A DNA stretch of 64,000 nucleotides. Origin: an uncultured Acidobacteriota bacterium (GTDB taxonomy: Bacteria > Acidobacteriota > Vicinamibacteria > Vicinamibacterales > CAVVIG01). The stretch lies in the NCBI GenBank assembly GCA_963724725.1, contig CAVRVT010000001.1:93874-157873 (forward strand). The letters are read 5' to 3'. The notes under the pieces are model-generated. The model saw only the letters and a list, made by a program, of their open reading frames with translations. It did no database searches and was not told the DNA's origin. A program made the translations under genes and the position numbers. The stretch's first letter is position 1; every line of letters starts with the position of its first letter. Below are positions 6,097 to 38,827 of this stretch, one piece after another.

Positions 6097-6097
6097 G

Positions 6098-6865
6098 TCA
6101 GCCACGGAAAACCCCGCGCCCCTCGCGATAGGCGCCCGCGACCTCCGCAGGGTCACCGTCCATGACGAGGCGGCCGGAATCGAGCCAGACCAGGCGGTCG
6201 CATTGTGTCTGGAGGAACTCGAGGTCGTGCGAAACGAACACCGACGTGACCCCATCAGCCACGAGCGCATGGATACGCGCGAGACATTTCTCCGTGAAGA
6301 ACTCGTCGCCGACGCCGAAAATCTCGTCGACCAGCAAAACATCGGGTTTCACATCGAAGGCGAGCGCGAAGGCGAGACGCGCATACATGCCCGATGAGTA
6401 ATGCTTCACCGGTTCGTCGATGAACCCGTCGATTTCGGCGAACCGGACGATGTCGTCGAGTCGCGCCTCGATGCGTGCGGGAGTCACGCCGAGCAGCGTA
6501 CCGGCGAGGATGCAGTTCTCGGCGCCTGACAGATCCGGCTGGAAACCAACTCCGAGTTCGAGCAAGGGAACGATGCGCCGCGCACGATCGATCGTGACCT
6601 GGCCATGCTGCGGCACGATGACCCGTGCGAGGACGCGCAGCAGCGTCGACTTGCCGGCGCCGTTCCGTCCGATGACGCCGAGTCGCTCTCCCTTCGCGAT
6701 CGACAGTGACACGCCGGAAAGCGCTGCGTGCGCCGCACCTGGATACCCGTGCAACCACGAAGCGACGGTGTACTTCAGGCTGCGCGCTTCGACCGCGTTC
6801 CTGCGGAAGCTGACGCTCACGTCTTTCAGGTCGAACACGGTGGCGCCCGGAATCGTCTGCCTCAT
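6098..6865 (-). CDS. wzt: ABC transporter ATP-binding protein, Wzt/TagH-type (short form, no C-terminal carbohydrate-binding domain)
   Basis: Walker A GRNGAGKST, signature YSSGMYARLAFA, Walker B LLVDE, H-loop SHD. Overlaps the upstream ABC-2 permease gene. Confidence 0.8.
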   Translation of the reverse strand: MRQTIPGATVFDLKDVSVSFRRNAVEARSLKYTVASWLHGYPGAAHAALSGVSLSIAKGERLGVIGRNGAGKSTLLRVLARVIVPQHGQVTIDRARRIVPLLELGVGFQPDLSGAENCILAGTLLGVTPARIEARLDDIVRFAEIDGFIDEPVKHYSSGMYARLAFALAFDVKPDVLLVDEIFGVGDEFFTEKCLARIHALVADGVTSVFVSHDLEFLQTQCDRLVWLDSGRLVMDGDPAEVAGAYREGRGVFRG

Positions 6866-9722: not shown

Positions 9723-10095
9723 CGAATCGCGAGATGTTGGATCGAGGCGCCGGATTTCCGGCGCATCGTGATGGCGCAGCCGCTGCGCGAGTTCAGTATT
9801 TTGGAACAGCGCCGCTAACTGGGAAGCTGACTGGCAACCATGACGTTCACGATGAAGCGCGCGTAGCTCGCGAGCGCCCAGCTCCGGCGGCCGACGAGCA
9901 GCTCGTCACAGCTCCGGTGAGCTGCAGGCCCACAACCCGTCGGCGGCATCGCTTGGTCGCATCCCCTGCGCAGGTGGCCCTCACGAGCGTCACCGGCCAA
10001 TCCGCGTTCGCGAATGGCGCGCACCAGCCCGGCTTTGCCGCCGAACGCTACTCGGACCTTTCGCTGACTTCGCCCTCGGAAGTACTCAGACACCG

Positions 10096-10593
10096 TTACA
10101 ACCATCGTCGGACCCGCGCCCGGTATTGGTCGTAAGCCCTCCCAAACCGACGCGCGAGAAACGCTTCCTCCCTCAACACCACGCCGTAGTGCGTCAGCGC
10201 CACGACCGCCGGCAGCAACGCGAGCGACCACAGCTTGCCCAGCACCAGGGCGAGGCCCGCGTACGCGATCGAGCCGAAGAGATACATGGGATTCCTGGTG
10301 ACGCGGAACGGACCGCTGTCGACCAGGACAACCGGGGTCGCCGCGTTATGAATAGGCGTTCCGACCTTCTTCATCGTGGCCACCATCCAGGCGAACCCTG
10401 CCGCGCCAAGACAGAAAAGAATGCCGCCAAGAGCCCGCGCGCCAACGTGGAGCGGGCCGGAGATCCAGGGAGACGTCGGCCACATCGCCTCCAGTAAGAC
10501 ACCGAGGAGAAATCCGGTCAGGGGGATCAGGGGCGGGAAGACCACTACTTGAGAGTGCTCGAGTGCCGGAGGGCCCGTTTGCTGGTCCACCAT
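10096..10593 (-). CDS. Isoprenylcysteine carboxyl methyltransferase (ICMT)/phospholipid methyltransferase family membrane protein
   Basis: C-terminal 'VTRNPMYLFGSIAYAGLALVLG...EEAFLARRFGRAYDQYRARVRRWL', typical of the ICMT/PEMT family. ATG at 10593 lies within a conserved leader motif with RBS GGAGAC. Confidence 0.65.
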   Translation of the reverse strand: MVDQQTGPPALEHSQVVVFPPLIPLTGFLLGVLLEAMWPTSPWISGPLHVGARALGGILFCLGAAGFAWMVATMKKVGTPIHNAATPVVLVDSGPFRVTRNPMYLFGSIAYAGLALVLGKLWSLALLPAVVALTHYGVVLREEAFLARRFGRAYDQYRARVRRWL

Positions 10594-10642
10594 TCTGGTC
10601 TCCTGAATCATAGAGGTACTTGAGGTATGCCCGGCGCGCACT
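10584..10642 (-). promoter_or_regulatory. Conserved about 58-nt leader element, copy A, overlapping RBS and start of the ICMT-like gene
   Basis: Plus strand ggtccaccattctggtctcctgaatcatagaggtacttgaggtatgcccggcgcgcact is about 80% identical to 15128-15183. Confidence 0.5.
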
Positions 10643-10985
10643 CAGTGATGCTCGTACGGCGTCGCCCTCGGCAGTCGATCCGAGAGCTTCCAGGCAAAGA
10701 ACGCATCCGCGCTTCGTTCGCTCCACATGCGGATCACCGTCGATTCCGGCGACGATTTCGTCTTCGTCGAACCAGTCGGGCCGTCCGGCGCTGATGTCCG
10801 CGTGCGGGCAGTGCGCGTGTCATCCACGAGCGAGTACCTGCCGTATTCCGCTGGTGCAAGCCGTCGAACGGGTGCTGCCAAGGACGACCGTCGCATCGAT
10901 TGCGAAGATACCGGTGTGCTCCATGACTCCCGAGCGAGTCGAGCGAGCGCTCAAGGCGGCGCCGGATTCGTCCGCGCGCTCGCTT

Positions 10986-12137
10986 TCAACGCGCGCTTGG
11001 GTGAAGGCGCTGTCCTTGACAGCCGGGGCCTGAAAGGCCAAGGCCCGGCCCGGTCAGCATCGGGTACGCGGCCACATCGAGCACGCCGCCAGCGCCGAAC
11101 ATCAACGGAGGCTCACAGACATCGCGCGCGAGCAGAAACGTTCCAAACGCCCCTTCCTGCGCGACCAGCGCGCCGCCGGCAGCCCGGGCGACGGGTAGCG
11201 CCGCGCGTGTGAGGATGCTCGTCTCGCCCACCTGGGCGCCGACAATCACGCCAATGCCGGCGGCTCGTGCGGCATCGACGACCTCCAGCGAACGTATGAT
11301 GCCGCCCATCTTCGACACGCGCAGGTTGATCAGCCATTGGGACCGTGGGCCTGGAAGTCGTGACACCTGCTCGCGCCGCACGCAGCTCTCGTCCAGGATC
11401 ACCGGGCAGTTCAGCGCGCGCGAGAGGTCGGACAGTTCTGCGTACCGGTCCCTGCCGATCGGCTCTTCGACCGCGAAGAACTCATGGCCAAGCTGCTGCA
11501 GGGCGGTCCGGGCTTCTGCTCCGCTTCCCCAGACGTTGTTGGCATCCGCCCGAACACGGGCCGAGGCCGCCGGCCATTGCTCGCAGACGGTCAACTTCTC
11601 TCGATCGCGTTCGTGGTCTCCGGACAGCTTGACCTTGAAATCTCTGAAGCCGAACGACCAGTACCGTTCGGCCATCCCGTGGAACGCGCCCGGTGAGGCG
11701 TCCCCCAGAACAGCCGTGTAGTGAAAATTGCCGGCGAGCGCCGGCAGCGACAAGAGCGATTCAACGGTTGCACCGCTGGATCGGCCGAAGAGATCGAGCA
11801 GCGCCAGCTCGAGCGCGCACCACGCCGCCGGATGGCGATCGATTTCGCCTCGGTGCGAAATCACCCACGCGCGAAGCGATTCGACGTCGTCGATCTCTCG
11901 ACAGATCGTGGCCCGGTGCTGCTCGAGGAACGTTCGCGCCGAATCGACGGTTTCTCCGGTGACGTACGCGCGCGGGCACGATTCGCCGCGGCCCGCCGTC
12001 CCATCGGCCGCCAGGGCTTCGACCAGCACCGTCTCGGTTTCGGCCCGCTCGGCGGACGCGTGGCGGAATGCCGCTTTGAAGGGAATCCGGAGCTCGGTGA
12101 ACTGGAGCCGCTCGACGCGAACGCTAGCCGACGGCAT
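10986..12137 (-). CDS. Enolase-superfamily enzyme (mandelate racemase/muconate lactonising enzyme family; N-acyl amino acid racemase or dipeptide epimerase-like)
   Basis: 383-aa ORF with MR/MLE fold features: 'FKVKLSGD', 'VRADANNVW', 'ILDESC' and metal-ligand region 'EEPIGRDRYAELSDL'. Confidence 0.6.
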   Translation of the reverse strand: MPSASVRVERLQFTELRIPFKAAFRHASAERAETETVLVEALAADGTAGRGESCPRAYVTGETVDSARTFLEQHRATICREIDDVESLRAWVISHRGEIDRHPAAWCALELALLDLFGRSSGATVESLLSLPALAGNFHYTAVLGDASPGAFHGMAERYWSFGFRDFKVKLSGDHERDREKLTVCEQWPAASARVRADANNVWGSGAEARTALQQLGHEFFAVEEPIGRDRYAELSDLSRALNCPVILDESCVRREQVSRLPGPRSQWLINLRVSKMGGIIRSLEVVDAARAAGIGVIVGAQVGETSILTRAALPVARAAGGALVAQEGAFGTFLLARDVCEPPLMFGAGGVLDVAAYPMLTGPGLGLSGPGCQGQRLHPSAR

Positions 12138-17718: not shown

Positions 17719-19100
17719 GGACGAACGAGGGCGTGCTGGCGCATCTGCGGGCGAATCACGATCGAATCTTCAGCAAGCTCGTCGAGTTCGCTTCGATTCC
17801 GAGCGTGAGCACCGATCCCGCGCACGCGGCGGACATAGACCGGGCGGCACGCTGGGTAGCCGCCACGGTGTCGGCCGCCGGACCGTTCACGCTGCGCAAC
17901 CTTCCGACCGCCGGCCATCCGGTCGTGTATGGCGAGTGGCTGGGCGCGCCGGGTAAGCGCACACTGCTGGTGTACGGTCACTACGACGTGCAGCCGCCCG
18001 ATCCGCTCGACAAGTGGCACACCGCTCCGTGGACGCCAACCGTGCGCGACGGCCGCCTCTACGCGCGCGGCGTGTCCGACGACAAGGGGCCGATGCTGAT
18101 TCCGATCGCGGTGGCCGAGGCGTTCTTCGCGACGGCCGGCTGCCTGCCCGTCAACGTGAAGTTCATGTTCGAGGGCGAGGAAGAGATCGGCAGCCGCCAC
18201 CTCGACGCCTTCGTGCAGCAGCAGAAGGAGCTCCTCGCGGCGGACGTCGTCGTATCGGCGGACGGCGCGATGTGGCGCATCGACGAGCCGTCGCTCACCG
18301 TGGCGAGCCGCGGACTGTGCGGACTCGAACTCACACTCATGGCGGCCACGAAAGATTTGCACTCGGGTCGACACGGCGGCGGCGTGGCGAATCCGCTGCA
18401 TGCGATGGCCGCGCTCATAGCCTCGCTGCACGAGTCCAACGGTCGGGTGGCGGTGGCGGGTTTCTACGACGAGGTCCGCGCGTTGTCGTCCGACGAGCGC
18501 GCGGCGCTTGCCGCATTGCCGTACGACGAGCAGGCGTACCTCGCGCAGGTCGGCGCGCCGTCCGCGTTCGGCGAGCCCGGCTACACGACCCTCGAGCGTC
18601 AGTGGACGCGGCCTACGCTCGAGGTCAACGGCATGTGGGGCGGCTACCAGGGACCTGGCCAGAAGACGGTGATCCCGTGCGAGGCGCGCGCGAAGATCAC
18701 CTGCCGGCTCGTGCCCGATCAGGATCCGGAGGCGATCGCGGCGCGAGTGGCGCGACATCTCGAGGCCCATGTGCCTCAGGGCGCCCGCCTGTCGCTGACC
18801 CTCGCGGACCACGGCTCCCGTGCGACGCACATCAGGTCGGATCACTTCGCGTTGAAGGCGGCAGATGCCGCCCTGCAGGCCACGTACGGCGTGCGGCCTC
18901 TCGTGGTGCGCATGGGCGGCACCGTGCCGATCGCGGAGCTGTTCCAGCGCCACCTCGGACTCGACACCGTCTTCTTCTCGTTCTCCACGGCGGACGAGGA
19001 CTTCCATGCGCCCAACGAGTTCTTCCGCGTGCACCGTCTGCACGAAGGACTCGAGGCCTGGGCGCGGTACTGGGACATCCTCGGCGAGGCAAACGCATGA
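17715..19100 (+). CDS. M20-family metallopeptidase (dipeptidase / ArgE-DapE-CPG2-like amidohydrolase)
   Basis: 'GHYDVQP', 'RGVSDDKGP' and 'FEGEEEIGS' metal-binding motifs. Start overlaps the SDR stop. Confidence 0.75.
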   Translation: MRTNEGVLAHLRANHDRIFSKLVEFASIPSVSTDPAHAADIDRAARWVAATVSAAGPFTLRNLPTAGHPVVYGEWLGAPGKRTLLVYGHYDVQPPDPLDKWHTAPWTPTVRDGRLYARGVSDDKGPMLIPIAVAEAFFATAGCLPVNVKFMFEGEEEIGSRHLDAFVQQQKELLAADVVVSADGAMWRIDEPSLTVASRGLCGLELTLMAATKDLHSGRHGGGVANPLHAMAALIASLHESNGRVAVAGFYDEVRALSSDERAALAALPYDEQAYLAQVGAPSAFGEPGYTTLERQWTRPTLEVNGMWGGYQGPGQKTVIPCEARAKITCRLVPDQDPEAIAARVARHLEAHVPQGARLSLTLADHGSRATHIRSDHFALKAADAALQATYGVRPLVVRMGGTVPIAELFQRHLGLDTVFFSFSTADEDFHAPNEFFRVHRLHEGLEAWARYWDILGEANA

Positions 19101-20578
19101 CCTCGGACCGCCGCGACTCACTGCCGGATCCCACGGCCGCGGGGTCCGACGGCCTCGCACAGGCCGAGGCCCGCGTCGAGGCGCACAGCGCGTCGTTGAA
19201 GAAGGAGCTCGGCGTCCGCGATCTCGCCCTCACGCAGATCCTGTTCATCGTCGGGCTCACGTGGATCGGCGTCGCTGGGAAGCTCGGACCGTCGCACGTC
19301 GTCTTCTGGCTGCTCGCGCTCGTGCTCTTCTACCTACCCTCGGCCGCAGTGGTGATTTACCTCAATGGGCTGATGCCGCTCGAAGGCGGTCTGTACCAGT
19401 GGGCGAAGCTCGGCTTCAACCAGACCGTGGGTTTCATGCTGGCGTGGAACCTGTGGCTCTACGTGATCGTGTTCACGTCAGAGATCGGCCTGCAGTGCGC
19501 CACCTACCTTTCATATGCGATCGGACCGAGCGCAGCGTGGATGACGAGCAGCAGCTGGTTCGTGGCGTTGTCGTCGGCGCTGATCCTCTCGTTGATGGTG
19601 GTCACGTCCACCATCGGCCTGTCGGTGGGCAAGTGGGTGCACAACACCGGGGGCATCTTCATGATCACGATCTTCGGCGCGGTGGTGCTGCTGCCGGTGA
19701 TTGGCCTGCTCTCCGGCACGCTGGCCGAATACCATCCCTTCCGCACTCACCTTCCCGAGCTCTCGCTCTACAACCTGAACATTCTCGGGAAGATGGGCTT
19801 CGGCGCACTGGGCGGCTTCGAGTACATGGCCATTTTGGCCGGCGAGACCAGGGCGCCCGCGCGGTCCGTCACGCGGTCGGTTTTCATCGCGGCGCCGGTC
19901 ATCGCGTTGATGTTCGTGCTCGGCACGAGCACCGTCGTTGCCTTCGTGCCGAACAATACCATCGACCTGATTGGGCCGGTGGCGCAGGTGCTGCGCGTCG
20001 GCTTCGAGCCCTTCGGCATCGCCGCGCCACTCGTGACGATGGCGATTCTGATGACGCTGGCGATGCGTATCGGGCAAGCGAGTGTGGCGTTCACCGCGGT
20101 GACGCGCCTGCCGATGGTGGCCGGGTGGGATCACCTGCTGCCCGCCTGGTTCAGCCGCCTGCACGCCACCTACAAGACCCCGGTGAACTCGATCATGCTC
20201 GTGGCCGCGGCCTCATTCGGGATCGCGTCGTTGAGCCTCATCGGCGTCGGGCAGGCCGAGGCCTTTCAACTCGTGTTCAACGCTAGCGGCATCTTCTACG
20301 CGCTGACGTATGTCGTGATGTTCGCGATCCCGTTGTTCGGGCTGCGCACCGTCTCATCTCGGCCGCCGATGTGGTTGCGGCTGGCATCGCTGTCCGGTCT
20401 GCTGATGACGGTGTTGTACATCGTGCTCTCGGTGTTCCCGATCATCAAGGTCGAGAGCGTGTCCACGTTCGCCCTCAAGATCACGATGACGGTCGTGGCG
20501 ATGAACCTGGTGGGGATCGGGATTCTGTTCTCGGCAAGTCAACGGTCGGCGGCCGCGATGAAGACACGCCTTTCGTAG
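19097..20578 (+). CDS. APC-superfamily amino acid/polyamine permease
   Basis: About 493 aa with 12 predicted TM helices. Start overlaps the M20 stop. Confidence 0.65.
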   Translation: MTSDRRDSLPDPTAAGSDGLAQAEARVEAHSASLKKELGVRDLALTQILFIVGLTWIGVAGKLGPSHVVFWLLALVLFYLPSAAVVIYLNGLMPLEGGLYQWAKLGFNQTVGFMLAWNLWLYVIVFTSEIGLQCATYLSYAIGPSAAWMTSSSWFVALSSALILSLMVVTSTIGLSVGKWVHNTGGIFMITIFGAVVLLPVIGLLSGTLAEYHPFRTHLPELSLYNLNILGKMGFGALGGFEYMAILAGETRAPARSVTRSVFIAAPVIALMFVLGTSTVVAFVPNNTIDLIGPVAQVLRVGFEPFGIAAPLVTMAILMTLAMRIGQASVAFTAVTRLPMVAGWDHLLPAWFSRLHATYKTPVNSIMLVAAASFGIASLSLIGVGQAEAFQLVFNASGIFYALTYVVMFAIPLFGLRTVSSRPPMWLRLASLSGLLMTVLYIVLSVFPIIKVESVSTFALKITMTVVAMNLVGIGILFSASQRSAAAMKTRLS

Positions 20579-20595: not shown

Positions 20596-21891
20596 TCAAG
20601 AAGCAGATCGGAGCGCTCGGACAACGAGGCCAGCGACCGGTGCGCCAGCCTCCATGCGCAAGTCGGCGGCCGCAATCTCGAACTGCAGCTGGACCTCGGC
20701 GAGCAGCCGTTCGACGTACGCGCGGGCGTGGCTGTAGCGGCCGTGCAGTTCTAAACGGTAGTTGACGCCTTCCTGGCTTCCACCCGCGTGCTCGAGCGTG
20801 AACACGAACGCGCCGCCCGCCCGCAGCGCGCCCGCGGCGGCTGTGACGACAGGTTCGAGATCGCCGAAATAGACGAGCGCGTCGGCCGACACGATCAGGT
20901 CGAAGGCGTCAGGATTGTTGCGCAGGTACTCGGTCAACTCGACCCTCAGCAGCGAGTCGTAGGCGGTCTTCGCTTTCGCATGCACCAGCATCCCTTCGGA
21001 CAGATCGACCCCGGTCAATCGACGCGCGTACGGCGCAAGCAGGGGGCCGCACAACCCGGTGCCGCAGCCGGCGTCGAGCACATCGAGGCGCTTCGACGGC
21101 TCCAATCCCAGATCCTGCACCGTCGCTGACACCAACGCCGGCGCGCGGTACGACAGCCTTTGAAGTTTCGCTTCAAAGCTCGCGGCAAAGCCGTCGAAGG
21201 TCTTTTCGACGAATCCGTCTGATGCGCGCGCTGGAACGTCGCGGCCAGTGCAGGCCGCAAGCATGTGACGCGGGATCGGATCGTCGGGCTCCTCTTCGCA
21301 CCATTTTTCAAAAATCTTGACGGCCTCGCGGACTTCGCCGAGCGCGCAGTGTGCCAGCGCTAGCAGTTTTCGTGCGTCGCGGTGCTTCGGCCTGAGCGTG
21401 ATCACCTTGCAGAAGCAGGCCGCCGCTTCCTCCGTTCGGTTTGTCCCATTCAGCAGGATGCCGAAGTTGGTGTACGCGTCGATGTGCCCGGGGTTCGCCT
21501 GAATCGCCTTGCGATACGCCTCCTCCGCCTCCGACGGCCGGCCGGTTGCCCTCAGCAGAACGCCGAGATTGCTGTAGGCGTTGGCGTGGCACGGGTCCAG
21601 GTCGATCGCGCGACGATAGGCGGCAATGGCGGCATCCCACTTGCCCTCCGACTGAAAGACGATGCCGAGGTTGCTGTAGCAGTCCGCTCGATCGGGAGCG
21701 AGCGCGAGGCTCTGCTCGATGAGTTGGACCGCTTCGTCATTTCGTCCCTGCTGATGTGCGAGTACGCCGGCATAGTGCAACGCATCGGGATGGTTGGGAA
21801 CCGTTTCCAGCACGCGACGGAACACCTCATGCGCCTCGGCCAGCTGGTCGCCCCGCTGCAGATGGATCGCGACGGCGACCGCCTCGTCCAC
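20596..21891 (-). CDS. TPR-repeat protein fused to a class I SAM-dependent methyltransferase
   Basis: Five or more TPR units (AYSNLG, AYTNFG), then 'LDAGCGTGLCG' SAM-binding motif. GTG start at 21891 is inferred. Confidence 0.6.
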   Translation of the reverse strand: MDEAVAVAIHLQRGDQLAEAHEVFRRVLETVPNHPDALHYAGVLAHQQGRNDEAVQLIEQSLALAPDRADCYSNLGIVFQSEGKWDAAIAAYRRAIDLDPCHANAYSNLGVLLRATGRPSEAEEAYRKAIQANPGHIDAYTNFGILLNGTNRTEEAAACFCKVITLRPKHRDARKLLALAHCALGEVREAVKIFEKWCEEEPDDPIPRHMLAACTGRDVPARASDGFVEKTFDGFAASFEAKLQRLSYRAPALVSATVQDLGLEPSKRLDVLDAGCGTGLCGPLLAPYARRLTGVDLSEGMLVHAKAKTAYDSLLRVELTEYLRNNPDAFDLIVSADALVYFGDLEPVVTAAAGALRAGGAFVFTLEHAGGSQEGVNYRLELHGRYSHARAYVERLLAEVQLQFEIAAADLRMEAGAPVAGLVVRALRSAS

Positions 21892-21940
21892 CGTCAGCTC
21901 GCGCGTCGACGTGTCAGACGGCAGCGGCGCCTGCAAGACG

Positions 21941-22420
21941 TCAACCGATCTTGTTGGCAAGGAGGTCGTACTTGAAGAACACGGCCGCATCCGGCGAGCC
22001 GTCCGCCTTCTGCGGGAAGTACTCGACGTCGACCTTCGCGAACGCGAGGCTCACGGTCTCGGCGTACGGCTGATCGTTGGCGCCGGCGTGCGTGACCGAC
22101 GTAATGATGATGTCGTTCATCTTGACGACAAGGAACTCGTGCGGGCTCTTGCCCGCTTTGCGGTGTGTGATGGTCGCGTCCTTCAGGTGCGTCCCGGTCG
22201 CGCACGCCTGCAGGAGAAGCGGGGATGCTCTGTCGATGGTGTGAACTATCGCGAGATCCTTGAACGTCGCCTTCCCGGCGCCTCCGCCGCCGCCGGTCGG
22301 GCTCGAGCTCGTGCTCGACACGCCCCAAGAAAACGACAGAACCTCGATCTCGTCCTTGTGTTTCGCGTCAAGCGATTCGCCCTTGATATCTCCGATCTTG
22401 GCGAAAATGTCTGTGGCCAT
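21941..22420 (-). CDS. hcp: Type VI secretion system tube protein Hcp (orphan copy)
   Basis: 'MATDIFAKIGDIKGESLDAKHKDEIEVLSFSWGVS...GGGGGAGK...VDVEYFPQKADGS' closely matches the Hcp1 family consensus. Confidence 0.85.
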   Translation of the reverse strand: MATDIFAKIGDIKGESLDAKHKDEIEVLSFSWGVSSTSSSPTGGGGGAGKATFKDLAIVHTIDRASPLLLQACATGTHLKDATITHRKAGKSPHEFLVVKMNDIIITSVTHAGANDQPYAETVSLAFAKVDVEYFPQKADGSPDAAVFFKYDLLANKIG

Positions 22421-22558
22421 CTGATCGCTCCTGCGTCGCTCACCGTCGGACAGCAATCGAAGAATAGATGCCTGGTGCCCCGGAGACTATGCGATTTCGG
22501 CACCTCGACCTGGGTGACCTGCCACCTCAGCTGCAGTGACGGGATTCTGCCGAAACCG

Positions 22559-23482
22559 CTACGGCCTGGGTTCCGTCACCACGATCGCGACCGCATCCCC
22601 CTTCGGCGATATCGCCAGTCTTGACACGGCACCAAGGTCGTGCGCCGCCGCGTCGAACACTTCGGTCCACCCCGCCGCCCCTCGCGTCCAGGAGAAGACT
22701 TTCGTGCCGGCTGACATGAGGATCGTCTGACCGTCTGGCGTCCAGGCCAAGTCGCGGTCCGTGCTCCCGTCGACAGCTTTGACGATCCGCTCAATCTTCC
22801 TCGAGGGAATCTCGATCTGTTTGACCCAGAACTCCCCCGACGTCTCGCGATGTACGAAGCTGATGGAGCCCGTGCCGGGAATGCGTTGCAGCGACCGACC
22901 GATTCCTTCCGCCACGATCTCCGCTGTGCCGGTCTTCACATTGGCGATCCGCAAAGTGGCCGGCGAGCCAAGGACGAAAAGCGCGACAGTGTCCGCATCC
23001 ACCCACGTGTGGTAGCCAACCTGCTTGATGTCGGCGAACACCAGCTGCGGGTTGCGTCCCTGCGCATCGAAGCGCCACAACCGTTGCGACCGATCCGGTT
23101 CGGTGCGCACGACGCTGAAGCCGTCCAGGTCGCCGACGCCGGCGGGAAGGTACGTCGGTGAGTTCTCGTTCTCGGCCGTCTGAGTCAGTTGCGAGACCCG
23201 GTTGCCCGCGCGCTCGTACACGAAGATGTCGATTTGTTTACCGTCGCGGTTCGCGGCGAACAGGATGCGGCTGCTGTCTGCGCTGAACATCGGCTGGTTG
23301 TCGTAGCCGGGCAAGGTTGAAACCGGCGCCGGCTTCGTGTTCTTCAGAGAAGCCAACCCACCGGTCAGTTGAAGGAGGTAGATGTCCGTCGCCGGCGGCG
23401 GCGCGGGCGGGGGCTGCTGAGCCGTCGCCGTCGCCTGCAGCATGGCGAGGCCTGCGACGACGAAGAAAGGATGGGTCCGCAT
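22559..23482 (-). CDS. Periplasmic TolB-like beta-propeller (WD40-like) protein
   Basis: Signal peptide 'MRTHPFFVVAGLAMLQATATAQ', then TolB-like propeller repeats. Confidence 0.55.
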   Translation of the reverse strand: MRTHPFFVVAGLAMLQATATAQQPPPAPPPATDIYLLQLTGGLASLKNTKPAPVSTLPGYDNQPMFSADSSRILFAANRDGKQIDIFVYERAGNRVSQLTQTAENENSPTYLPAGVGDLDGFSVVRTEPDRSQRLWRFDAQGRNPQLVFADIKQVGYHTWVDADTVALFVLGSPATLRIANVKTGTAEIVAEGIGRSLQRIPGTGSISFVHRETSGEFWVKQIEIPSRKIERIVKAVDGSTDRDLAWTPDGQTILMSAGTKVFSWTRGAAGWTEVFDAAAHDLGAVSRLAISPKGDAVAIVVTEPRP

Positions 23483-23505
23483 CGACAGAGTATCGCAGAC
23501 TGAAC

Positions 23506-24510
23506 TCATCGCACGACGAAGCGCTGCTCGTGCAAGACGGCACCGTCGGCGCTTCTGACTTCGATGCGCCAGTCCGCTCCGCCGTCGACAACCTGCCGGC
23601 TGTACGTGCGATAGCCCTCCGTCGCGCTGGCCCGAATCGTCAGTCTCGAGGATTTCACCAGCGTGTCTCCGCGAAACCAGCGATGCTCCACGACGGCATC
23701 ATGCAGGGATCTGACACGTGTATACAGCACGATCGACCCGGGCGACACCGGGTCGCCTGCCGGATCGCATCCCCAGCTGGTGCCGCTCGTCGACAACGTC
23801 CGGCACAGCTGCACCGTGGCCAGAGTCATTGAGCCCGAAGAGCGTGCCGGAGCGGGACTGTCGGCGACCCCCGGCGGTCGGGCCTGTTCGGTCGGCGCGG
23901 CCATGATGGGCTCGGCGGCGCTCGGCAGCGTACGCTCGACGGCCGGCGGCGGCGTGGGTTGCACGGCCGGTGCCGGTGTCGGCGTTTCGCGCGACGACCA
24001 CGGTCGCCTCACGAAGAACGTGACCGCCAGAAGGAGGACTACGACCACACCGATCGACGCCGTCGCTCGCGAGCGCGAGACAATCGGAGGAGCTGGCGGA
24101 TGCGGCTCAGGAGCCGTCGGAGTTCGTGGAGGCAGATCGGGCAGCGACGTGTCACGCGCCGTCGGCGTCACAAGTGCCGGCACATCGACCGGCAAGCCAC
24201 GAGCGCGGCAGAACTCTTCGAGGTTCTCGCGGCTGGTGGCGATCATCGGATGTTCCACCGGAAGCGATGCGGATGCAATTGCCACCGCCCGTCGGTAGAA
24301 CGTCTCGGCATCGCCCGGCCGTCCGGTCTTCTCGGCGACCACGGCGAGGTTGTTCAGTGTATTCGCCAGATCCGGATGGAGCGGACCCAGCTCGGCTTCC
24401 TGTATGCGCGCGGCGCCTCTCAGCAGCTCATCGGCACGCGCCAGGTCGTCAGTGGCAGCGGCTTCTTCCGCCGCCTCGAGCATGCGCCCGGCATCCTGCA
24501 GTTCCGACAT
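23506..24510 (-). CDS. TPR-containing single-pass membrane protein with C-terminal beta-rich domain
   Basis: N-terminal TPR segment, Pro-rich linker, TM helix 'IGVVVVLLLAVTFFV', C-terminal domain of unknown family. Confidence 0.45.
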   Translation of the reverse strand: MSELQDAGRMLEAAEEAAATDDLARADELLRGAARIQEAELGPLHPDLANTLNNLAVVAEKTGRPGDAETFYRRAVAIASASLPVEHPMIATSRENLEEFCRARGLPVDVPALVTPTARDTSLPDLPPRTPTAPEPHPPAPPIVSRSRATASIGVVVVLLLAVTFFVRRPWSSRETPTPAPAVQPTPPPAVERTLPSAAEPIMAAPTEQARPPGVADSPAPARSSGSMTLATVQLCRTLSTSGTSWGCDPAGDPVSPGSIVLYTRVRSLHDAVVEHRWFRGDTLVKSSRLTIRASATEGYRTYSRQVVDGGADWRIEVRSADGAVLHEQRFVVR

Positions 24511-24620
24511 CGCCTCTCCGGCGTCGCCTCGCAATCAACGCTGACGCCGATCTCATTCTAGAACGGCGTCCGGTGAAGAATGTGTCGCGCGATGGGGTGG
24601 CCCAGTTCGGGTTCGCGCTG

Positions 24621-25718
24621 TTATTGCGTCCGCCAGGTCTTGCCGCCATCGAGGGTCGAGAATGTGCGGCCGTCGGCTGCCGTCACCGTTGCGGTCTGAG
24701 CGTCGGACGCGCTGATGAACTTGAGATCGATCGCTTCGGAAATCGGGACGCGCTGCCACGTGCGGCCGTCGATCGACAACACGACCATGCCGCCAGGCCC
24801 GACGAGCCAGCAGATCGTCGGCGACGGCGCAACGCCGGACGTCAACGTCGCCGGAGCACCCGTCGATTGCGTCTGCCAGGTCGTTCCGCCGTCGATCGAG
24901 CGCTCGACGCTGCCGCCCGTCAGGAGTCGCCAGCGGATGTTCGGATTTGGTGACGCGATCTGCGTGCGCGCCAGTTCCATCTTGGCCAGCGCGTCAGGGC
25001 GCGCGACGGACGTGGCGACGTCGGCCATCGCGCGTGTGGGCGTTTGAGACTTCGCGGCCGCCGCTGATGCCCGTGCGGCGGGCTGCGGAGACGTTTCGGC
25101 GACAGCCGGCGCTGGCGCGGCCGGCGGCGCGGCTGCCGCATCGCGTGCGCCGTTCGGCGCGGTGTTCGCCAGCGCCTCCTGCGGAGCGGACCGCGCCGCG
25201 CCCTTCGCGGCAGCGCGTTCCTCGTCGGCCCCGGCCTGGCGCTGCGGCGTGCCGGCATCCTTGGACTGGGCAGGGCGATCGGCAGAGGCAGTCGGCTGCC
25301 CGCGCAGTGCTGAAAACTCGAGCGGCGGCGGTGCAGGCGCCGGCACAGACGTCTCCGAGGCGGCTGCCGCGGACGCCGGCAGCGGAGCGGATTGCTCGAG
25401 CCGCGTCGTCCTCTGGACGTTGATCCACAACACCACGCCGGCGGCAGCGGCGGCGAGCGGCACCAGCCAACCGACCCTCGACATCCGCCACCATCCGCGC
25501 GCCGGCGCGGGCGTCGTCGTTCGGGCCATCGCGGCCAGCAGCGCTTGACACCGCACGCAGCTCGACGCGTGCGATTCCACGGCCGAGCGTTCGCCCGCGC
25601 TCAGTGTGCCGTCGGACCAAGCCGCCAGCGTGTCTGCGTCGACGCAGCCAGACGATGACCCCATCGCCAGCTGGTTGCGCAACGTCTCCCGAAGCCATCG
25701 TGTGGGCACGTCACTCAT
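24621..25718 (-). CDS. Anti-sigma factor (zinc-finger type) with TM helix and C-terminal BNR/Asp-box repeat sensor domain
   Basis: N-terminal 'HASSCVRCQ' zinc-binding motif, TM segment, Ala/Pro-rich linker, and C-terminal 'DGGTTWQ'/'DGGKTWRTQ' Asp-box repeats. Overlaps the ECF sigma gene. Confidence 0.6.
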   Translation of the reverse strand: MSDVPTRWLRETLRNQLAMGSSSGCVDADTLAAWSDGTLSAGERSAVESHASSCVRCQALLAAMARTTTPAPARGWWRMSRVGWLVPLAAAAAGVVLWINVQRTTRLEQSAPLPASAAAASETSVPAPAPPPLEFSALRGQPTASADRPAQSKDAGTPQRQAGADEERAAAKGAARSAPQEALANTAPNGARDAAAAPPAAPAPAVAETSPQPAARASAAAAKSQTPTRAMADVATSVARPDALAKMELARTQIASPNPNIRWRLLTGGSVERSIDGGTTWQTQSTGAPATLTSGVAPSPTICWLVGPGGMVVLSIDGRTWQRVPISEAIDLKFISASDAQTATVTAADGRTFSTLDGGKTWRTQ

Positions 25719-26382
25719 AGATGACCTGCTTCAGATCCAGCGAGCCGGGATCGTCGGCCACGGACGCGAAACACGCGGCGATCTGATCGTCGCTCAATCG
25801 GGACTCCTCGCGCAGCTGCCGTTCGACTTCGCGCCGGATCGCGAGACGCGAGCGCGCCAGCTGGCGCGACGCGGTCGCCTCGCTTTCCTTCATCACGCGT
25901 CCGGTCTCTGCGAGCGTCAGTTCCTGCACGTAGTAACAGCCGAGACGGAGTCGGTCGCGGGCCGTCAGGCTGGCAACGGCACGCCGGAGCGCGTGCCCCA
26001 CGAGCGCGACGTAACGCGCGCGATCCGGATCCGGTTCATCGCTCCGCGCGGATGCCTCTTCGTCGGCCAGCGGCTCCGCCCTGCGCTGGACGCGCACGCG
26101 ATCGACGAAGCGCTGCGCGAGCACGGCACGCAGCCATGTGGCGAGACTGCTGCGACCCTGGTAATACCGGAGGAGCGACTGCCGCTCGCCGCCGCTGTTC
26201 TTCATGCCGTACAGGTCGGCGTACAGTGAGTCGGCGATCTCGCGCGCGCCCTGCGTGCGATCGAGCGCGTCGGCGGCGCGATACAGGAGCGGCCGGTATT
26301 CGCGGACGAACCTCTCCCACGCCGGCTCGTCTCCTTCGGCACACAGACGGGCGAGCTCGAGATCCGCGGAATGGGCGCCCAC
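25711..26382 (-). CDS. ECF-type RNA polymerase sigma factor (sigma-70 family, group 4)
   Basis: Region 2 'LLYRAADAL...DLYGM' and region 4 'LGCYYVQELTLAETGRVMKESEATASRQLARSR' HTH. Confidence 0.7.
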   Translation of the reverse strand: MGAHSADLELARLCAEGDEPAWERFVREYRPLLYRAADALDRTQGAREIADSLYADLYGMKNSGGERQSLLRYYQGRSSLATWLRAVLAQRFVDRVRVQRRAEPLADEEASARSDEPDPDRARYVALVGHALRRAVASLTARDRLRLGCYYVQELTLAETGRVMKESEATASRQLARSRLAIRREVERQLREESRLSDDQIAACFASVADDPGSLDLKQVIYE

Positions 26383-35426: not shown

Positions 35427-36074
35427 GTGGGCGGGGGACTATCTTCCAGCGAAATCCTCGTGGTGGGACCCGGACAAGTCGTGGCTCTGCCGTCGCAACG
35501 CGTGACCGAACTGCTGGTCCAATGGCGAGCGGGCGACGAGGACGCCCTGCAGGCACTCGTGCCCCTCGTGTACAACGAGCTCCGGGCGGTGGCGCACCGC
35601 TACCTCCGGCGCGAGCGGCGGTCGCATACGCTGCAATCCGAAGCGCTCGTTCACGAAGCGTACCTACGCCTTCTTGACGGACGACCGTTGGCTACCGAAA
35701 ATCGCGCGCACTTCGTCGCTGTCGCGGCGCGGTTGATGCGGCAGATTCTCGTCGACTACGCGAGGCGTCATCAGGCGGCCAAGCGCGGCACCGGACAGCA
35801 GGTCGAATTGACGCTCGGCATCGAGCCCGCGCAGTCGCCGCGTATGGACATCGTGGCTCTGGACGATGCGTTGAACGCGCTGTCGCGGCGTGACGCGCAA
35901 CAGGGCCGAATCGTCGAGCTGCGGTTCTTCGGCGGCCTGACGATTGAGGAAGCCGCCCTGGCGCTCGATATCTCTCCGGCTACCGTCAAACGCGACTGGG
36001 CGATGGCGCGGGCGTGGTTGTCGCGTGAAATAAAAAAAGGTCGTCATGGACGAGGCACAATGGAGCAGCGCTAA
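35427..36074 (+). CDS. ECF sigma factor of the kinase-associated type (ECF sigma-70, TIGR02999-like); start uncertain
   Basis: 'VTELLVQWRAGDEDALQALVPLVYNELRAVAHRYL' N-terminal signature and C-terminal HTH 'LRFFGGLTIEEAALALDISPATVKRDWAMARAWL'. Overlaps the kinase gene. Confidence 0.7.
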   Translation: MGGGLSSSEILVVGPGQVVALPSQRVTELLVQWRAGDEDALQALVPLVYNELRAVAHRYLRRERRSHTLQSEALVHEAYLRLLDGRPLATENRAHFVAVAARLMRQILVDYARRHQAAKRGTGQQVELTLGIEPAQSPRMDIVALDDALNALSRRDAQQGRIVELRFFGGLTIEEAALALDISPATVKRDWAMARAWLSREIKKGRHGRGTMEQR

Positions 36075-38827
36075 GGACATCTTCGCAGCAGCGCTCGAAC
36101 GCGATCCCGGCGATCGGGATGCCTTTTTGCGCAACGCCTGTGGCGAAGACGAATTCCTGCGGCTCGAAGTCCAGTCGCTCCTCTCCGCCTACCACACGTC
36201 CGACGGGCTCTCCACCCCGGCGTGGCTCGATCCGTCCGGCGCCGGCGCGACCGCCGCCGGCAGGATGATCGGTCCCTACCGGCTGATGCGGAAGCTGGGC
36301 GAAGGCGGAATGGGCCAGGTCTGGCTCGCGGAGCAAACCACGCCGGTGCGACGCCAGGTCGCGCTCAAGCTGGTCCGCGTCGGAATCTACGACGATGCGG
36401 TTCTGCAGCGCTTCCGTGCGGAATGGCAATCGCTGGCGATGATGGATCATCCGGCCATTGCCAAGGTGTTCGACGCCGGCGCCACGCCCGATGGCCAACC
36501 GTTCCTCGTGATGGACTACGTGCAAGGCGAGCCCATCACCGACTACTGCAACCGCAAGAAGCTGAAGATTCGCGAGCGGCTGGACTTGTTCCTCGCCGCG
36601 TGTGAAGGCGTCCAGCACGCGCATCAGAAGGCCGTCATCCACCGCGATTTGAAACCAGCGAATCTTCTGGTCGTCGAGGACAACGGCAGGCCCACACCGC
36701 ACATCATCGATTTCGGTCTGGCGAAGGCCGTGACTCCGGATGCCGACGACCCGAGGATGTTGACCCGCGCCGGCACCTTCGTTGGCACGCCGGGTTACAT
36801 GAGCCCCGAGCAGGCGGACCCGGGTGCCCATGACGTGGATACCCGGACCGATGTGTACTCGCTCGGGGCGATGCTCTACGAGCTGTTGACGGGGACGCTG
36901 CCGATCGCCGAAAGACGGAATCAGCCGCTCGATGAAGTCTTGCGGAAATTGCGGGAAGAAGATCCGCCCCGGCCGAGCACCAGGATCGACGCGACGTCCT
37001 CGACGACGGCCGATGAGCGTGGTACGGAACCCAGGCAGCTCGCCCGTCAGCTGCGAGGAGATCTCGATTCCATCACCATGAAGGCGCTCGAGCGGGACCG
37101 GGCGCGGCGATTCGGATCGCCCGCGGAGCTCGCAGACGATGTCAGGCGGTATTTGCTGAAGCAGCCGATTCTCGCGCGGCCGGCAAGCCGCGTCTACCGG
37201 CTGCAGCAAGTACGTCCAGCGGCACCGCCTTGGCGTCTCGGCGGCGGCGGTCATCCTGCTTCTGCTCGTCGGGTCGGCGATCGTGCAGGCGGTCGAGCTC
37301 CGGCGGATTACGCGCGAACGCGACCGCGCGAATCGAATCACGGATTTCATGAGCGGCATGTTCAGGGTCGCGGACCCGAGCGAAACGCGCGGGAACAGCG
37401 TCACGGCCCGCGAGATCCTGGACAAGGCCGCGAAGGACGTCGAGACCGGGCTCGCGAAGGATCCGTTGCTTCAGGCGCAGATGATGGATCTCATCGGCAA
37501 CGTGTATGCAAGCCTGGGCCTGTACGCGAGCGCGCAGTCGCTGCTCGAGCAGGCGGTCCAGGTCTGGACGCGCACCGCCGGCGCGGACACTCCCCCTGAA
37601 CTGACCTCGCAACACAATCTCGCCGAGACGCTCGGCCGCCGCGGCCGTTACGTCGAGGCAGAAAAGCTCGAGCGGCGGACGTGGGAAGCCTTCCGACGGA
37701 TCCTGGGGCCGGACCACCCGGACACGCTCAAATCAATGGCGAGCCTGGCGATCACGCTCGAGAATCAGAACCGGCTGCAGGAAGCCGAACAGCTCAATCG
37801 AGAGGCGGTCGAGCTTGCGCGCCGTGCACTCGGTGAGGACCATCCGGACACACTGCGTCCGATCAACAGCCTCGCGAACGTCCTTCAGCGGCAGGCTCAC
37901 TACACAGACGCCGAGAAATACCACACCGAGGTGCTCGAGCGGCGGCGGCGGGTGCTCGGCACCGAGCATCCGCAGACCATCATCACGATGCAGGGGCTCG
38001 CCGGCGATTTTCGGGGAGAGGGCAGGTTCGTCGAGGCGGAACGCATGGACCGCGAGACCCTCGAGATCCGTCGCCACATGTTCGGACTGGCCCATCAGCA
38101 CACGCTGTCGGCGATGCTGAGCCTCGCCCGCGACATCGCCCGTCAAGGCCGGTACGCCGAGGCCGAGGCGATCGACCGACAGGCGCTCGACATCGCGCGG
38201 AGCGCGCTTGGTCCTGAACACCCGGATACGGCTTCCCTCATGATCAATCTTGCGCTCTACATCCACGAACGGGGAGGGTATTCAGAGTCCGAGCAGCTCA
38301 ATCGTGCCGCGATCGAAATCAACCGCCGCGTTCTCGGACCGGAGCACGCCTACACCCTGGCGCCGATGAACAACCTCGCGCGGGACCTCGCCATGGAAGG
38401 CAAGCTCCACGAAGCGGAACTGCTGGCGAGGCAGACCTTGGACGGCTCGCGCCGCACCCTGGGCCCCGATCACCCCACCACCATCGACTTCATGCAGGCG
38501 CTACGCGGCTACTTGAAGGACGAACATCTGTACGTCGAGGCGGAAGAGCTGTCGCGGCAACTGGTCGAAATCATGCGACGTCTCCATGGCGTCGCCGACA
38601 CCAGCACCGCTGAGGCATCGTACGAGCTCGGCACGGTCCTCGCGCTGGAGGGCAAGCCGGATGACGCGGTCGCCGCTCTCAGCGATGCGGTCGAGCACGG
38701 TTTGCAGCGCGAGAAGCTCACCGCGATGCAGACCGATGCCACTCTCAAGTCGCTGCGCAACAGCGCTGGCTTCAAAGCCGTCGTCGCCGATGCCAGGCGA
38801 CGCGCCAGCGCTTCGAAGCCGGAATGA
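36046..38827 (+). CDS. Ser/Thr protein kinase-TM-TPR protein, with an apparent frameshift near 37200-37225
   Basis: Hanks kinase motifs GEGGMGQV, HRDLKPAN, DFGLAK and GTPGYMSPE are followed by a TM helix and TPR repeats. The helix ('RHRLGVSAAAVILLLLVGSAIV') and the TPRs (ORF 37283-38827) are in the +1 frame. Confidence 0.75.

Follow-up and report, generated by a model that had tools for sequence, protein, structure and literature searches.

Orphan hcp genes are ordinary. The question raised by this locus was what such a gene does when all other type VI secretion system (T6SS) genes are missing around it. The gene lies in a stretch of 64,000 nucleotides (the window) from contig CAVRVT010000001.1 of an uncultured Acidobacteriota bacterium. 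A preliminary description of the window had reported hcp, which encodes the T6SS tube protein Hcp, as a lone gene. It had proposed the downstream gene for a tetratricopeptide repeat (TPR) methyltransferase, hereafter MT, as a candidate cargo or effector gene. We found that the two genes belong together and that MT genes recur beside T6SS components in other genomes. With moderate confidence, we read the pair as a conserved T6SS satellite module in which the TPR-guided MT would methylate Hcp or another T6SS part.

The hcp gene was read on the minus strand (Table 1). Its product matched PF05638 (T6SS_HCP) over profile positions 1-129 of 129, with an E value of 6.6e-39 and 133.6 bits (cut-off 23.5). 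The NCBIfam model TIGR03344 (Hcp1/TssD) gave 68.4 bits, above its cut-off of 58.9. In phmmer searches, the protein matched PDB entries from end to end, namely 8yun (6.4e-43), 4tv4 (1.1e-42) and Pseudomonas aeruginosa Hcp1, 1y12 (8.4e-40). The NCBI/ENA record P0001 was the same 159-residue Hcp with 100% identity, and the nearest homologues carried the deposited label Vicinamibacterales (Acidobacteriota). The source is taken to be a Vicinamibacterales-like bacterium from soil. These results bore out the Hcp1-type tube gene of the preliminary description. Judged by its sequence, it is a canonical full-length Hcp/TssD, for which ring formation and T6SS-dependent secretion are predicted.

The absence of vgrG, PAAR, tssB/C and other such genes from the 64 kb, also described before, was confirmed in two ways. 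Open reading frames (ORFs) were chosen by codon-position GC content, and about 60 of them, covering essentially all coding space, were scanned against Pfam. No T6SS family except Hcp was found in these ORFs. In addition, six-frame tblastn was performed with Luteitalea TssK, L, M, A, B, C, E, F and G, ClpV, TagF, TagJ, Hcp1/2 and VgrG, and with PAAR and VgrG of Thiodictyon, as a control free of annotation, and it matched only hcp and the MT gene in the whole window. The description of hcp as alone therefore held in that it is the sole T6SS gene in the window, but not otherwise, since the MT gene begins 4 nt past the hcp stop. The MT had been given the span 20596-21891. However, an N-terminal motif, TRELT(L/V)(D/E)EAV, conserved in 30 homologues, maps 5' of position 21891, and the start must therefore lie upstream of that position. 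The NCBI annotation (P0248), 100% identical to the window MT, likewise has 446 residues and places the start at TTG 21936. Because of the 4-nt spacer, co-transcription and possibly coupled translation would be expected. No terminator-like site was seen between hcp and MT, and promoter and terminator scans were otherwise uninformative. With the short spacer, the absence of a terminator-like site and the ribosome-binding site of its own before hcp, the two genes form an operon.

The MT protein consists of two parts. Pfam gave TPR_1/2/11/16 and relatives in the first part and Methyltransf_11/12/25/23 in the second, with Methyltransf_11 spanning residues 305-397 of a 464-residue ORF. The AlphaFold2 (AF2) model, with a mean predicted local distance difference test score (pLDDT) of 78, showed 13 helices in the TPR part and an alpha/beta domain after them. 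The TPR part resembled the substrate-binding TPR domains of OGT and SPINDLY most, which were its top PDB matches both by sequence and by Foldseek. The S-adenosylmethionine (SAM) motif I, VLDAGCGTG (V286-G294), was invariant across 30 homologues. The family is called 'predicted TPR repeat methyltransferase' at JGI. Its features are those that define a TPR-repeat class I SAM methyltransferase, and methyl transfer is predicted. In PDB sequence searches, the catalytic domain matched generic class I enzymes only, with 3g5l as the best match (1.2e-10) and 3bkw, PmtA, NodS and METTL27 as further ones. Since the Foldseek matches were dominated by TPR proteins and the model was weak at the SAM site, the domain was not placed as protein-specific or small-molecule-specific. 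No toxin family was found in MT with Pfam, NCBIfam and PADLOC. A defence-system reading was rejected, because PADLOC had no match for Hcp and matched MT to mad2 only through the generic methyltransferase domain.

We then asked how often the two genes occur together. A pattern-based scan with six Hcp search patterns, using one genome per GTDB species, gave 80 loci. An orthologous MT, 60-79% identical across phylum-level labels, followed hcp within at most 165 nt in 42 of them. In 5 loci, hcp lay inside a T6SS cluster with MT 7.7-9.5 kb downstream, and the remaining 33 carried hcp without MT. Independent long contigs from ENA and JGI with close Hcp homologues all showed hcp and then the TPR-methyltransferase, with unrelated neighbours otherwise. 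All-versus-all clustering of the flanking genes gave only two widely shared families, Hcp (69 loci) and MT (50 loci). The next families occurred in at most 9 loci and were mostly T6SS genes of the cluster loci. Consistent with this, no third family conserved around the pair, such as an immunity or adaptor gene, was found by this clustering in the 42 loci, and every other hcp-MT locus had upstream genes different from those of the window. No T6SS core gene was found within 10 kb on either side of the pair in these 42 loci.

The median ratio of nonsynonymous to synonymous substitution (dN/dS) for hcp and MT was 0.16-0.21 in the groups labelled Acidobacteriota, Alphaproteobacteria and Actinomycetota, and about 0.17-0.19 for MT orthologues. 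By these ratios, both genes are under purifying selection. In a neighbour-joining (NJ) tree, the window MT clustered with the pair enzymes labelled Acidobacteriota, the MTs from T6SS clusters were basal, and the Thiodictyon and Ralstonia sequences fell outside.

Two side observations concerned the pair itself. Two contigs of one metagenome-assembled genome (MAG), MFD00392.bin.2.84, each carried a pair with near-identical Hcp (L029, 10001-11878, and L030, 3429-5278), so the module can apparently duplicate within a genome. On a 2.1-kb metagenome contig (L003, 81-2149), tssC was found directly 5' of a pair-type hcp. Its hcp and the 41-nt downstream spacer were 98.5-99% identical to an orphan pair on a 414-kb contig (L002, 10001-10521; L004), and the homology began exactly at the hcp ATG. 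Either the order tssC-hcp-MT on L003 is genuine, or the assembly joined two near-identical copies of hcp into a chimera.

The MT family was also found inside T6SS clusters. On a 4.0-Mb Acidobacteriota contig (L039), Pfam gave the order tssL-tssM-tagF/PP2C-tssA-tssB-tssC-hcp-hcp-tagJ-tssE-tssF-tssG-clpV-MT-vgrG. Luteitalea pratensis, a cultured species with a complete genome (CP015136.1, L099), had its T6SS genes in the same order, and there the MT, at about 1,555,763-1,557,106, was 52% identical to the window MT and overlapped the vgrG start by 8 nt. The clpV-MT-vgrG slot was seen in L039, L099, L112, L120, L127, L134, L136 and L147. In L136, the order tssG-clpV-MT-vgrG-PAAR-tssK placed MT among core genes. 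MT was adjacent to vgrG in L119 and L121, and to PAAR in L125. In Thiodictyon syntrophicum Cad16T, a TPR-MT homologue 46% identical to the window MT was the last gene of a PAAR operon. This locus on plasmid pTs485 (L101, 10370-13332) encodes PAAR, a 377-residue methyltransferase-domain protein and the TPR-MT, divergent from vgrG, and is thus one T6SS spike locus with two methyltransferases.

The search was repeated from the MT side in JGI metagenomes. T6SS genes (hcp, vgrG, PAAR, clpV or other) adjoined MT in 33 of 41 loci with at least 39% MT identity, and most of the other 8 were truncated contigs. Among close homologues (at least 60%) with readable upstream sequence (n=16), hcp was directly upstream in 14 and the order clpV-MT(-vgrG) was present in 2. 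Nearly all homologues at 39-55% identity lay beside T6SS genes (clpV-MT-vgrG four times, once continuing with PAAR-tssK-tssL, as well as MT-vgrG, PAAR-MT and a divergent hcp). No T6SS context was seen for six homologues at 38% identity or less in these metagenomes. Judged by gene position, the MT family is associated with the T6SS, with a recurrent fixed slot between clpV and vgrG in Vicinamibacterales and other lineages. The preliminary description had allowed that the MT might be a conserved housekeeping enzyme unrelated to Hcp in other genomes. This was checked and was not the case, as the link was present in 42 of 80 loci and MT was T6SS-adjacent in many genomes. The proposed coupling of MT to Hcp thus stood, but not in the form of an effector island.

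Gene position also placed MT among putative T6SS accessory (Tag-type) genes, with a predicted role in assembly or firing. Tag proteins (TagJ/ImpE, TagF, PpkA/PppA/Fha) are likewise encoded by non-core genes at a fixed place in the core cluster. The pair itself resembled auxiliary hcp and hcp-vgrG clusters, such as hcp-1/hcp-2 of Vibrio cholerae and hcp2/vgrG of the P. aeruginosa H2-T6SS, where hcp also lies far from the core, has a ribosome-binding site to itself and is transcribed together with a partner gene. Orphan hcp2/vgrG islands are mentioned in a review of T6SS accessory factors (PMC13584744). However, the partner in the window is a highly conserved TPR-SAM methyltransferase and not vgrG, an adaptor, a toxin or an immunity gene, and the pair is fixed across phyla.

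The pair might also be left over from a lost T6SS cluster and be in decay, or hcp might lie beside a housekeeping MT by chance, with no joint function. We regard this as highly improbable. Orphan hcp genes can be relics, and TPR-methyltransferases of this broad type also occur outside the T6SS, in an Azospirillum flagellar island and in Legionella. However, both ORFs were intact with the low dN/dS values in three groups, and the adjacency was kept in 42 species with different flanks and in the 14 of 16 close metagenome homologues. The base composition of the window was unremarkable as well, even at about 65% GC and with no island signature. Because adjacency persisted while the flanks changed, and because dN/dS was low, the pair appears to be kept by selection and to be neither relic nor coincidence. 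The Azospirillum case was a 42%-identical TPR-MT of A. ramasamyi (plasmid NZ_CP029830.1; L103, 11878-13131), flanked by the genes for flagellin and several very large TPR proteins and by flbT. This suggested that the Azospirillum relatives may serve flagellin modification.

In the reading that we favour, MT would be a cytoplasmic enzyme of the producer that works in the manner of FlmG or OGT. A protein client, most plausibly Hcp, with whose gene MT travels, would dock on the N-terminal TPR superhelix. The C-terminal SAM-dependent domain would then methylate the docked Hcp, or a T6SS component bound there, ahead of tube assembly or export. Methylation may tune tube stability, assembly or recognition. 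The orphan hcp would provide tube subunits for a T6SS whose core genes probably lie in another part of the genome. TPR-guided modification of Hcp is favoured from the architecture of MT, from the similarity of its TPR part to OGT and SPINDLY and from the place of the Azospirillum homologues in flagellin islands. In Caulobacter crescentus, the TPR domain of FlmG binds flagellins and its glycosyltransferase domain then modifies them (PMC7591256). Like MT, FlmG and, by architecture, OGT and SPINDLY combine an N-terminal TPR superhelix with a C-terminal transferase, and the genes for FlmG and MT both lie beside that of a secreted subunit. However, the catalytic domain of FlmG is a glycosyltransferase with flagellin as the client, whereas MT is a class I SAM methyltransferase whose client would be Hcp, with binding and modification predicted. 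Hcp or another T6SS part was proposed as the client because of this FlmG-like layout and because hcp is accompanied by two methyltransferase families, as described below. FliB is a flagellin lysine methylase, and NleE/OspZ are effectors of the type III secretion system (T3SS). They are precedents for the two roles that compete for MT, namely methylation of a secreted structural subunit encoded by a neighbouring gene and action in target cells as a secreted methyltransferase. However, they have no sequence relation to MT and belong to other secretion systems.

Several results weighed against the favoured reading. In the TssC homologue search, the source contig was absent from the best 120 matches, which carries little weight because thousands of soil sequences share 85-95% identity in TssC. 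The closest solved relatives of the catalytic domain were uncharacterised or generic enzymes, often small-molecule methyltransferases, and AF2 confidence was low near the SAM site. When acceptor residues were compared, Lys88, Lys91 and Lys157 were near-invariant in MT-linked Hcp and relaxed in 5 close relatives without MT. However, they were retained in 8 more distant Hcp without MT, and the comparison gave no usable signal for an acceptor residue. In addition, taxon labels were taken as deposited, gene calls in related loci were heuristic, and the NJ trees carried no support values. Finally, T6SS effectors, too, are classically recognised by an association with all of hcp, vgrG and PAAR, as seen for MT.

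The main rival explanation is therefore that MT is a T6SS cargo effector, loaded through its TPRs onto Hcp, VgrG or PAAR, which would methylate a host factor in target cells. We consider this possible but doubtful. The targets would most likely be eukaryotic (protists, fungi), for which no immunity gene would be needed, and hcp-MT would be a carrier-effector pair. Methyltransferase effectors exist in other secretion systems, such as NleE/OspZ in the T3SS, and provide a precedent. The MT family lies beside all three expelled components, namely hcp (42 loci), vgrG (L119, L121 and the clpV-MT-vgrG slot) and PAAR (Thiodictyon, L125). Hcp, VgrG or PAAR serves as the carrier of cargo effectors, and such adjacency is their usual genomic signature (PMC4832377).

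However, MT differs from such effectors in several respects. Effectors carried inside the Hcp ring are small, and with 446 residues MT exceeds the size of the Hcp lumen; no toxin domain was recognised in it by Pfam, NCBIfam or PADLOC either. Its 60-79% identity across phyla and a dN/dS of about 0.18 are unlike variable effectors. No adaptor or immunity gene was conserved, and the convergent permease gene ends 17 nt past the MT stop, so there is no space for an immunity gene. In L136, MT stands upstream of vgrG among core genes. The pair also persists in genomes labelled Actinomycetota, where no T6SS is known, and hcp also has a second methyltransferase family beside it at loci that lack T6SS genes. 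According to the part of PMC4832377 that summarises Silverman et al. 2013, effectors of the Tse2 type bind inside the Hcp1 ring. In that case too, the gene comes right after hcp and is coupled to it. However, Tse2-type effectors are small, single-domain and strain-variable toxins, whereas MT is a conserved two-domain protein of 446 residues with no immunity gene and a clpV-vgrG slot. The Hcp-chaperoned cargo or effector island of the preliminary description was thus not upheld, given the size of MT, its strong conservation, the missing immunity gene, the core-cluster slot and the Actinomycetota pairs.

The loci labelled Actinomycetota and Chloroflexota bear on a further explanation. About 12 pair loci from MAGs were labelled Actinomycetota/Mycobacterium (L012, L014, L016, L027, L028, L031, L042, L043, L045-L047 and L087). 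They formed a single clade in both NJ trees and were under purifying selection. In L012, where the pair lies at 10001-11802, the best PDB match of a flanking kinase (4530-6323) was the PknF-type kinase of Mycobacterium tuberculosis, 7naa (6e-120), which makes the Actinomycetota label credible. At the same syntenic locus as this Actinomycetota pair, L044 had lost MT and kept hcp. Lone intact hcp genes were found in Pedococcus bigeumensis S9.3A (L059, 10001-10483; 61% identical to the window Hcp) and in Mycolicibacterium frederiksbergense AC80 (L070, 10001-10471; 58% identical). Neither MT nor a T6SS gene was found within 10 kb of these two genes. The T6SS is not known in Actinomycetota. In these groups, Hcp therefore seems to be used for something other than the T6SS, and possibly also in the genome of the window.

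An unrelated methyltransferase (DUF7059 and MTS, with an NPPY motif, PrmA/HemK-like) adjoined hcp in 10 loci labelled Chloroflexota or Actinomycetes (L062, 1788-3341; L065; L066; L074; L075; L079; L080, 10502-11920; L083; L085; L088). It lay directly 3' of hcp in 7 of them and about 600 nt upstream in 3, and no T6SS gene was found within 10 kb of these 10 loci. Since a second, unrelated methyltransferase family also accompanies hcp, Hcp together with methyl transfer appears to be the common denominator. In the Chloroflexota-labelled loci L062 (4465-5562), L065 and L066, a second hcp followed the first and encoded a C-terminal extension of about 230 residues without a Pfam match. By this layout, the second Hcp is an 'evolved Hcp'-like protein at a locus with no T6SS genes.

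According to this further explanation, the source genome has no T6SS, and Hcp and MT form a self-contained system, exapted from the T6SS and spread horizontally among soil bacteria. The modified Hcp ring or tube would have, for example, a structural, chaperone or export role. We consider it unlikely for the window. It agrees with the absence of T6SS genes from the 64 kb here and from within 10 kb of the 42 pairs, with the intact pair under purifying selection in MAGs labelled Actinomycetota (supported by the PknF-type kinase of L012), with the lone hcp of the Pedococcus and Mycolicibacterium isolates, and with the HemK-like methyltransferase that pairs with hcp in the loci labelled Chloroflexota or Actinomycetes. 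In addition, no second hcp was found in pair-bearing genomes by the pattern-based scan. However, the scan misses cluster-type Hcp genes, as Luteitalea Hcp1 matched 0 of 6 patterns. For this reason, little weight attaches to the missing second hcp, and it was rejected as an argument against a T6SS. On the other side, TolC-like OEP and HlyD-like genes in the window (Pfam) indicated that it comes from a diderm, and complete T6SS clusters are common in its lineage. An hcp gene distant from the core cluster is normal in T6SS-positive bacteria, and on L003 a pair-type hcp directly follows tssC. In a wider form, a portable Hcp-methyltransferase unit would have arisen from an Acidobacteriota T6SS and moved to Alphaproteobacteria, Verrucomicrobiota and Mycobacteriales-like Actinomycetota, the HemK-like version would have been reinvented in Chloroflexota and Actinomycetes, and the window copy would be T6SS-independent. 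We view this scenario, too, as improbable.

Known post-translational control of the T6SS is threonine phosphorylation. If the tube is methylated as in the reading that we favour, a contractile injection system would have a new layer of post-translational control, parallel to flagellin modification. If MT instead acts as an effector, it would represent a new class among T6SS effectors. Should the pair function with no T6SS present, to which the Actinomycetota and Chloroflexota loci hint, Hcp would have a second life beyond secretion. In the literature searched, nothing linked Hcp or the T6SS with a TPR methyltransferase. The hcp-MT operon and the T6SS association of the MT family are widespread in soil bacteria and so far undescribed in this literature. 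The August 2026 review of accessory factors lists no methyltransferase that accompanies Hcp, VgrG and PAAR and has a fixed place in core clusters, and it has 0 occurrences of 'methyl', 'TPR' and 'tetratricopeptide' (PMC13584744). Cultured carriers of MT are Luteitalea pratensis and Thiodictyon syntrophicum Cad16T.

Table 1. Features of the hcp-MT locus and its neighbours, in window positions.
Feature	Position	Strand	Basis
hcp (tssD), 159 aa, Hcp1-family T6SS tube protein; start ATG at 22420, stop TGA at 21941-21943	21941..22420	-	Pfam, NCBIfam and PDB matches; frame from sequence
AGGAG, Shine-Dalgarno-like, 7 nt 5' of the hcp ATG	22428..22432	-	read from sequence
4-nt spacer, hcp stop (TGA 21941-21943) to MT start (TTG 21934-21936)	21937..21940	-	
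MT, TPR-repeat class I SAM-dependent methyltransferase, 446 aa	20596..21936	-	Pfam; P0248 identical
TPR superhelix of MT, presumed protein-binding, about residues 16-230, 6-7 repeats	21247..21891	-	AF2 pLDDT 84-97
Rossmann-fold SAM methyltransferase domain of MT, about residues 265-446	20599..21144	-	Pfam, motif I
Secreted PD40 beta-propeller, 5' neighbour of hcp, outside the conserved module	22559..23509	-	PF07676, 1.7e-8
TPR-DUF2914 protein	23506-24534	-	
zf-HC2 anti-sigma/BNR protein	24621-25718	-	
Extracytoplasmic function (ECF) sigma factor	25711-26382	-	
Amino-acid permease, convergent, 3' neighbour	19100..20578	+	PF13520 AA_permease_2, 3.4e-24

The neighbours of hcp were described before as a TPR-methyltransferase gene downstream, which was correct, and a TolB-like gene upstream, which was not. 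The upstream product carries a signal peptide and is a PD40 propeller, and the TolB model gave 32 bits where 343 were needed. The TolB-like identity was therefore rejected. The PD40 gene belongs to a tight same-strand block 5' of hcp (22559-26382) with the TPR-DUF2914, zf-HC2 and ECF sigma genes, and the order from ECF to PD40 was also present on one Logan contig. Because this block is not conserved beside the pair elsewhere, read-through into hcp-MT from an ECF-controlled operon may occur in this lineage only.

Other products of the window, as assigned by Pfam, included enzymes for sugars and lipids, ABC and efflux transporters, kinases, ECF sigma factors and a cold-shock protein. At 36046-38827 on the plus strand, a Ser/Thr kinase ORF (36046-37599) overlapped a TPR ORF (37283-38827) in a different frame. 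The kinase frame became Arg-rich nonsense at about 37195-37205, where the other frame started a transmembrane segment followed by TPRs. This looks like a +1 frameshift, by sequencing error or in a pseudogene, within a kinase-transmembrane-TPR gene that follows an ECF sigma gene (35427-36074).

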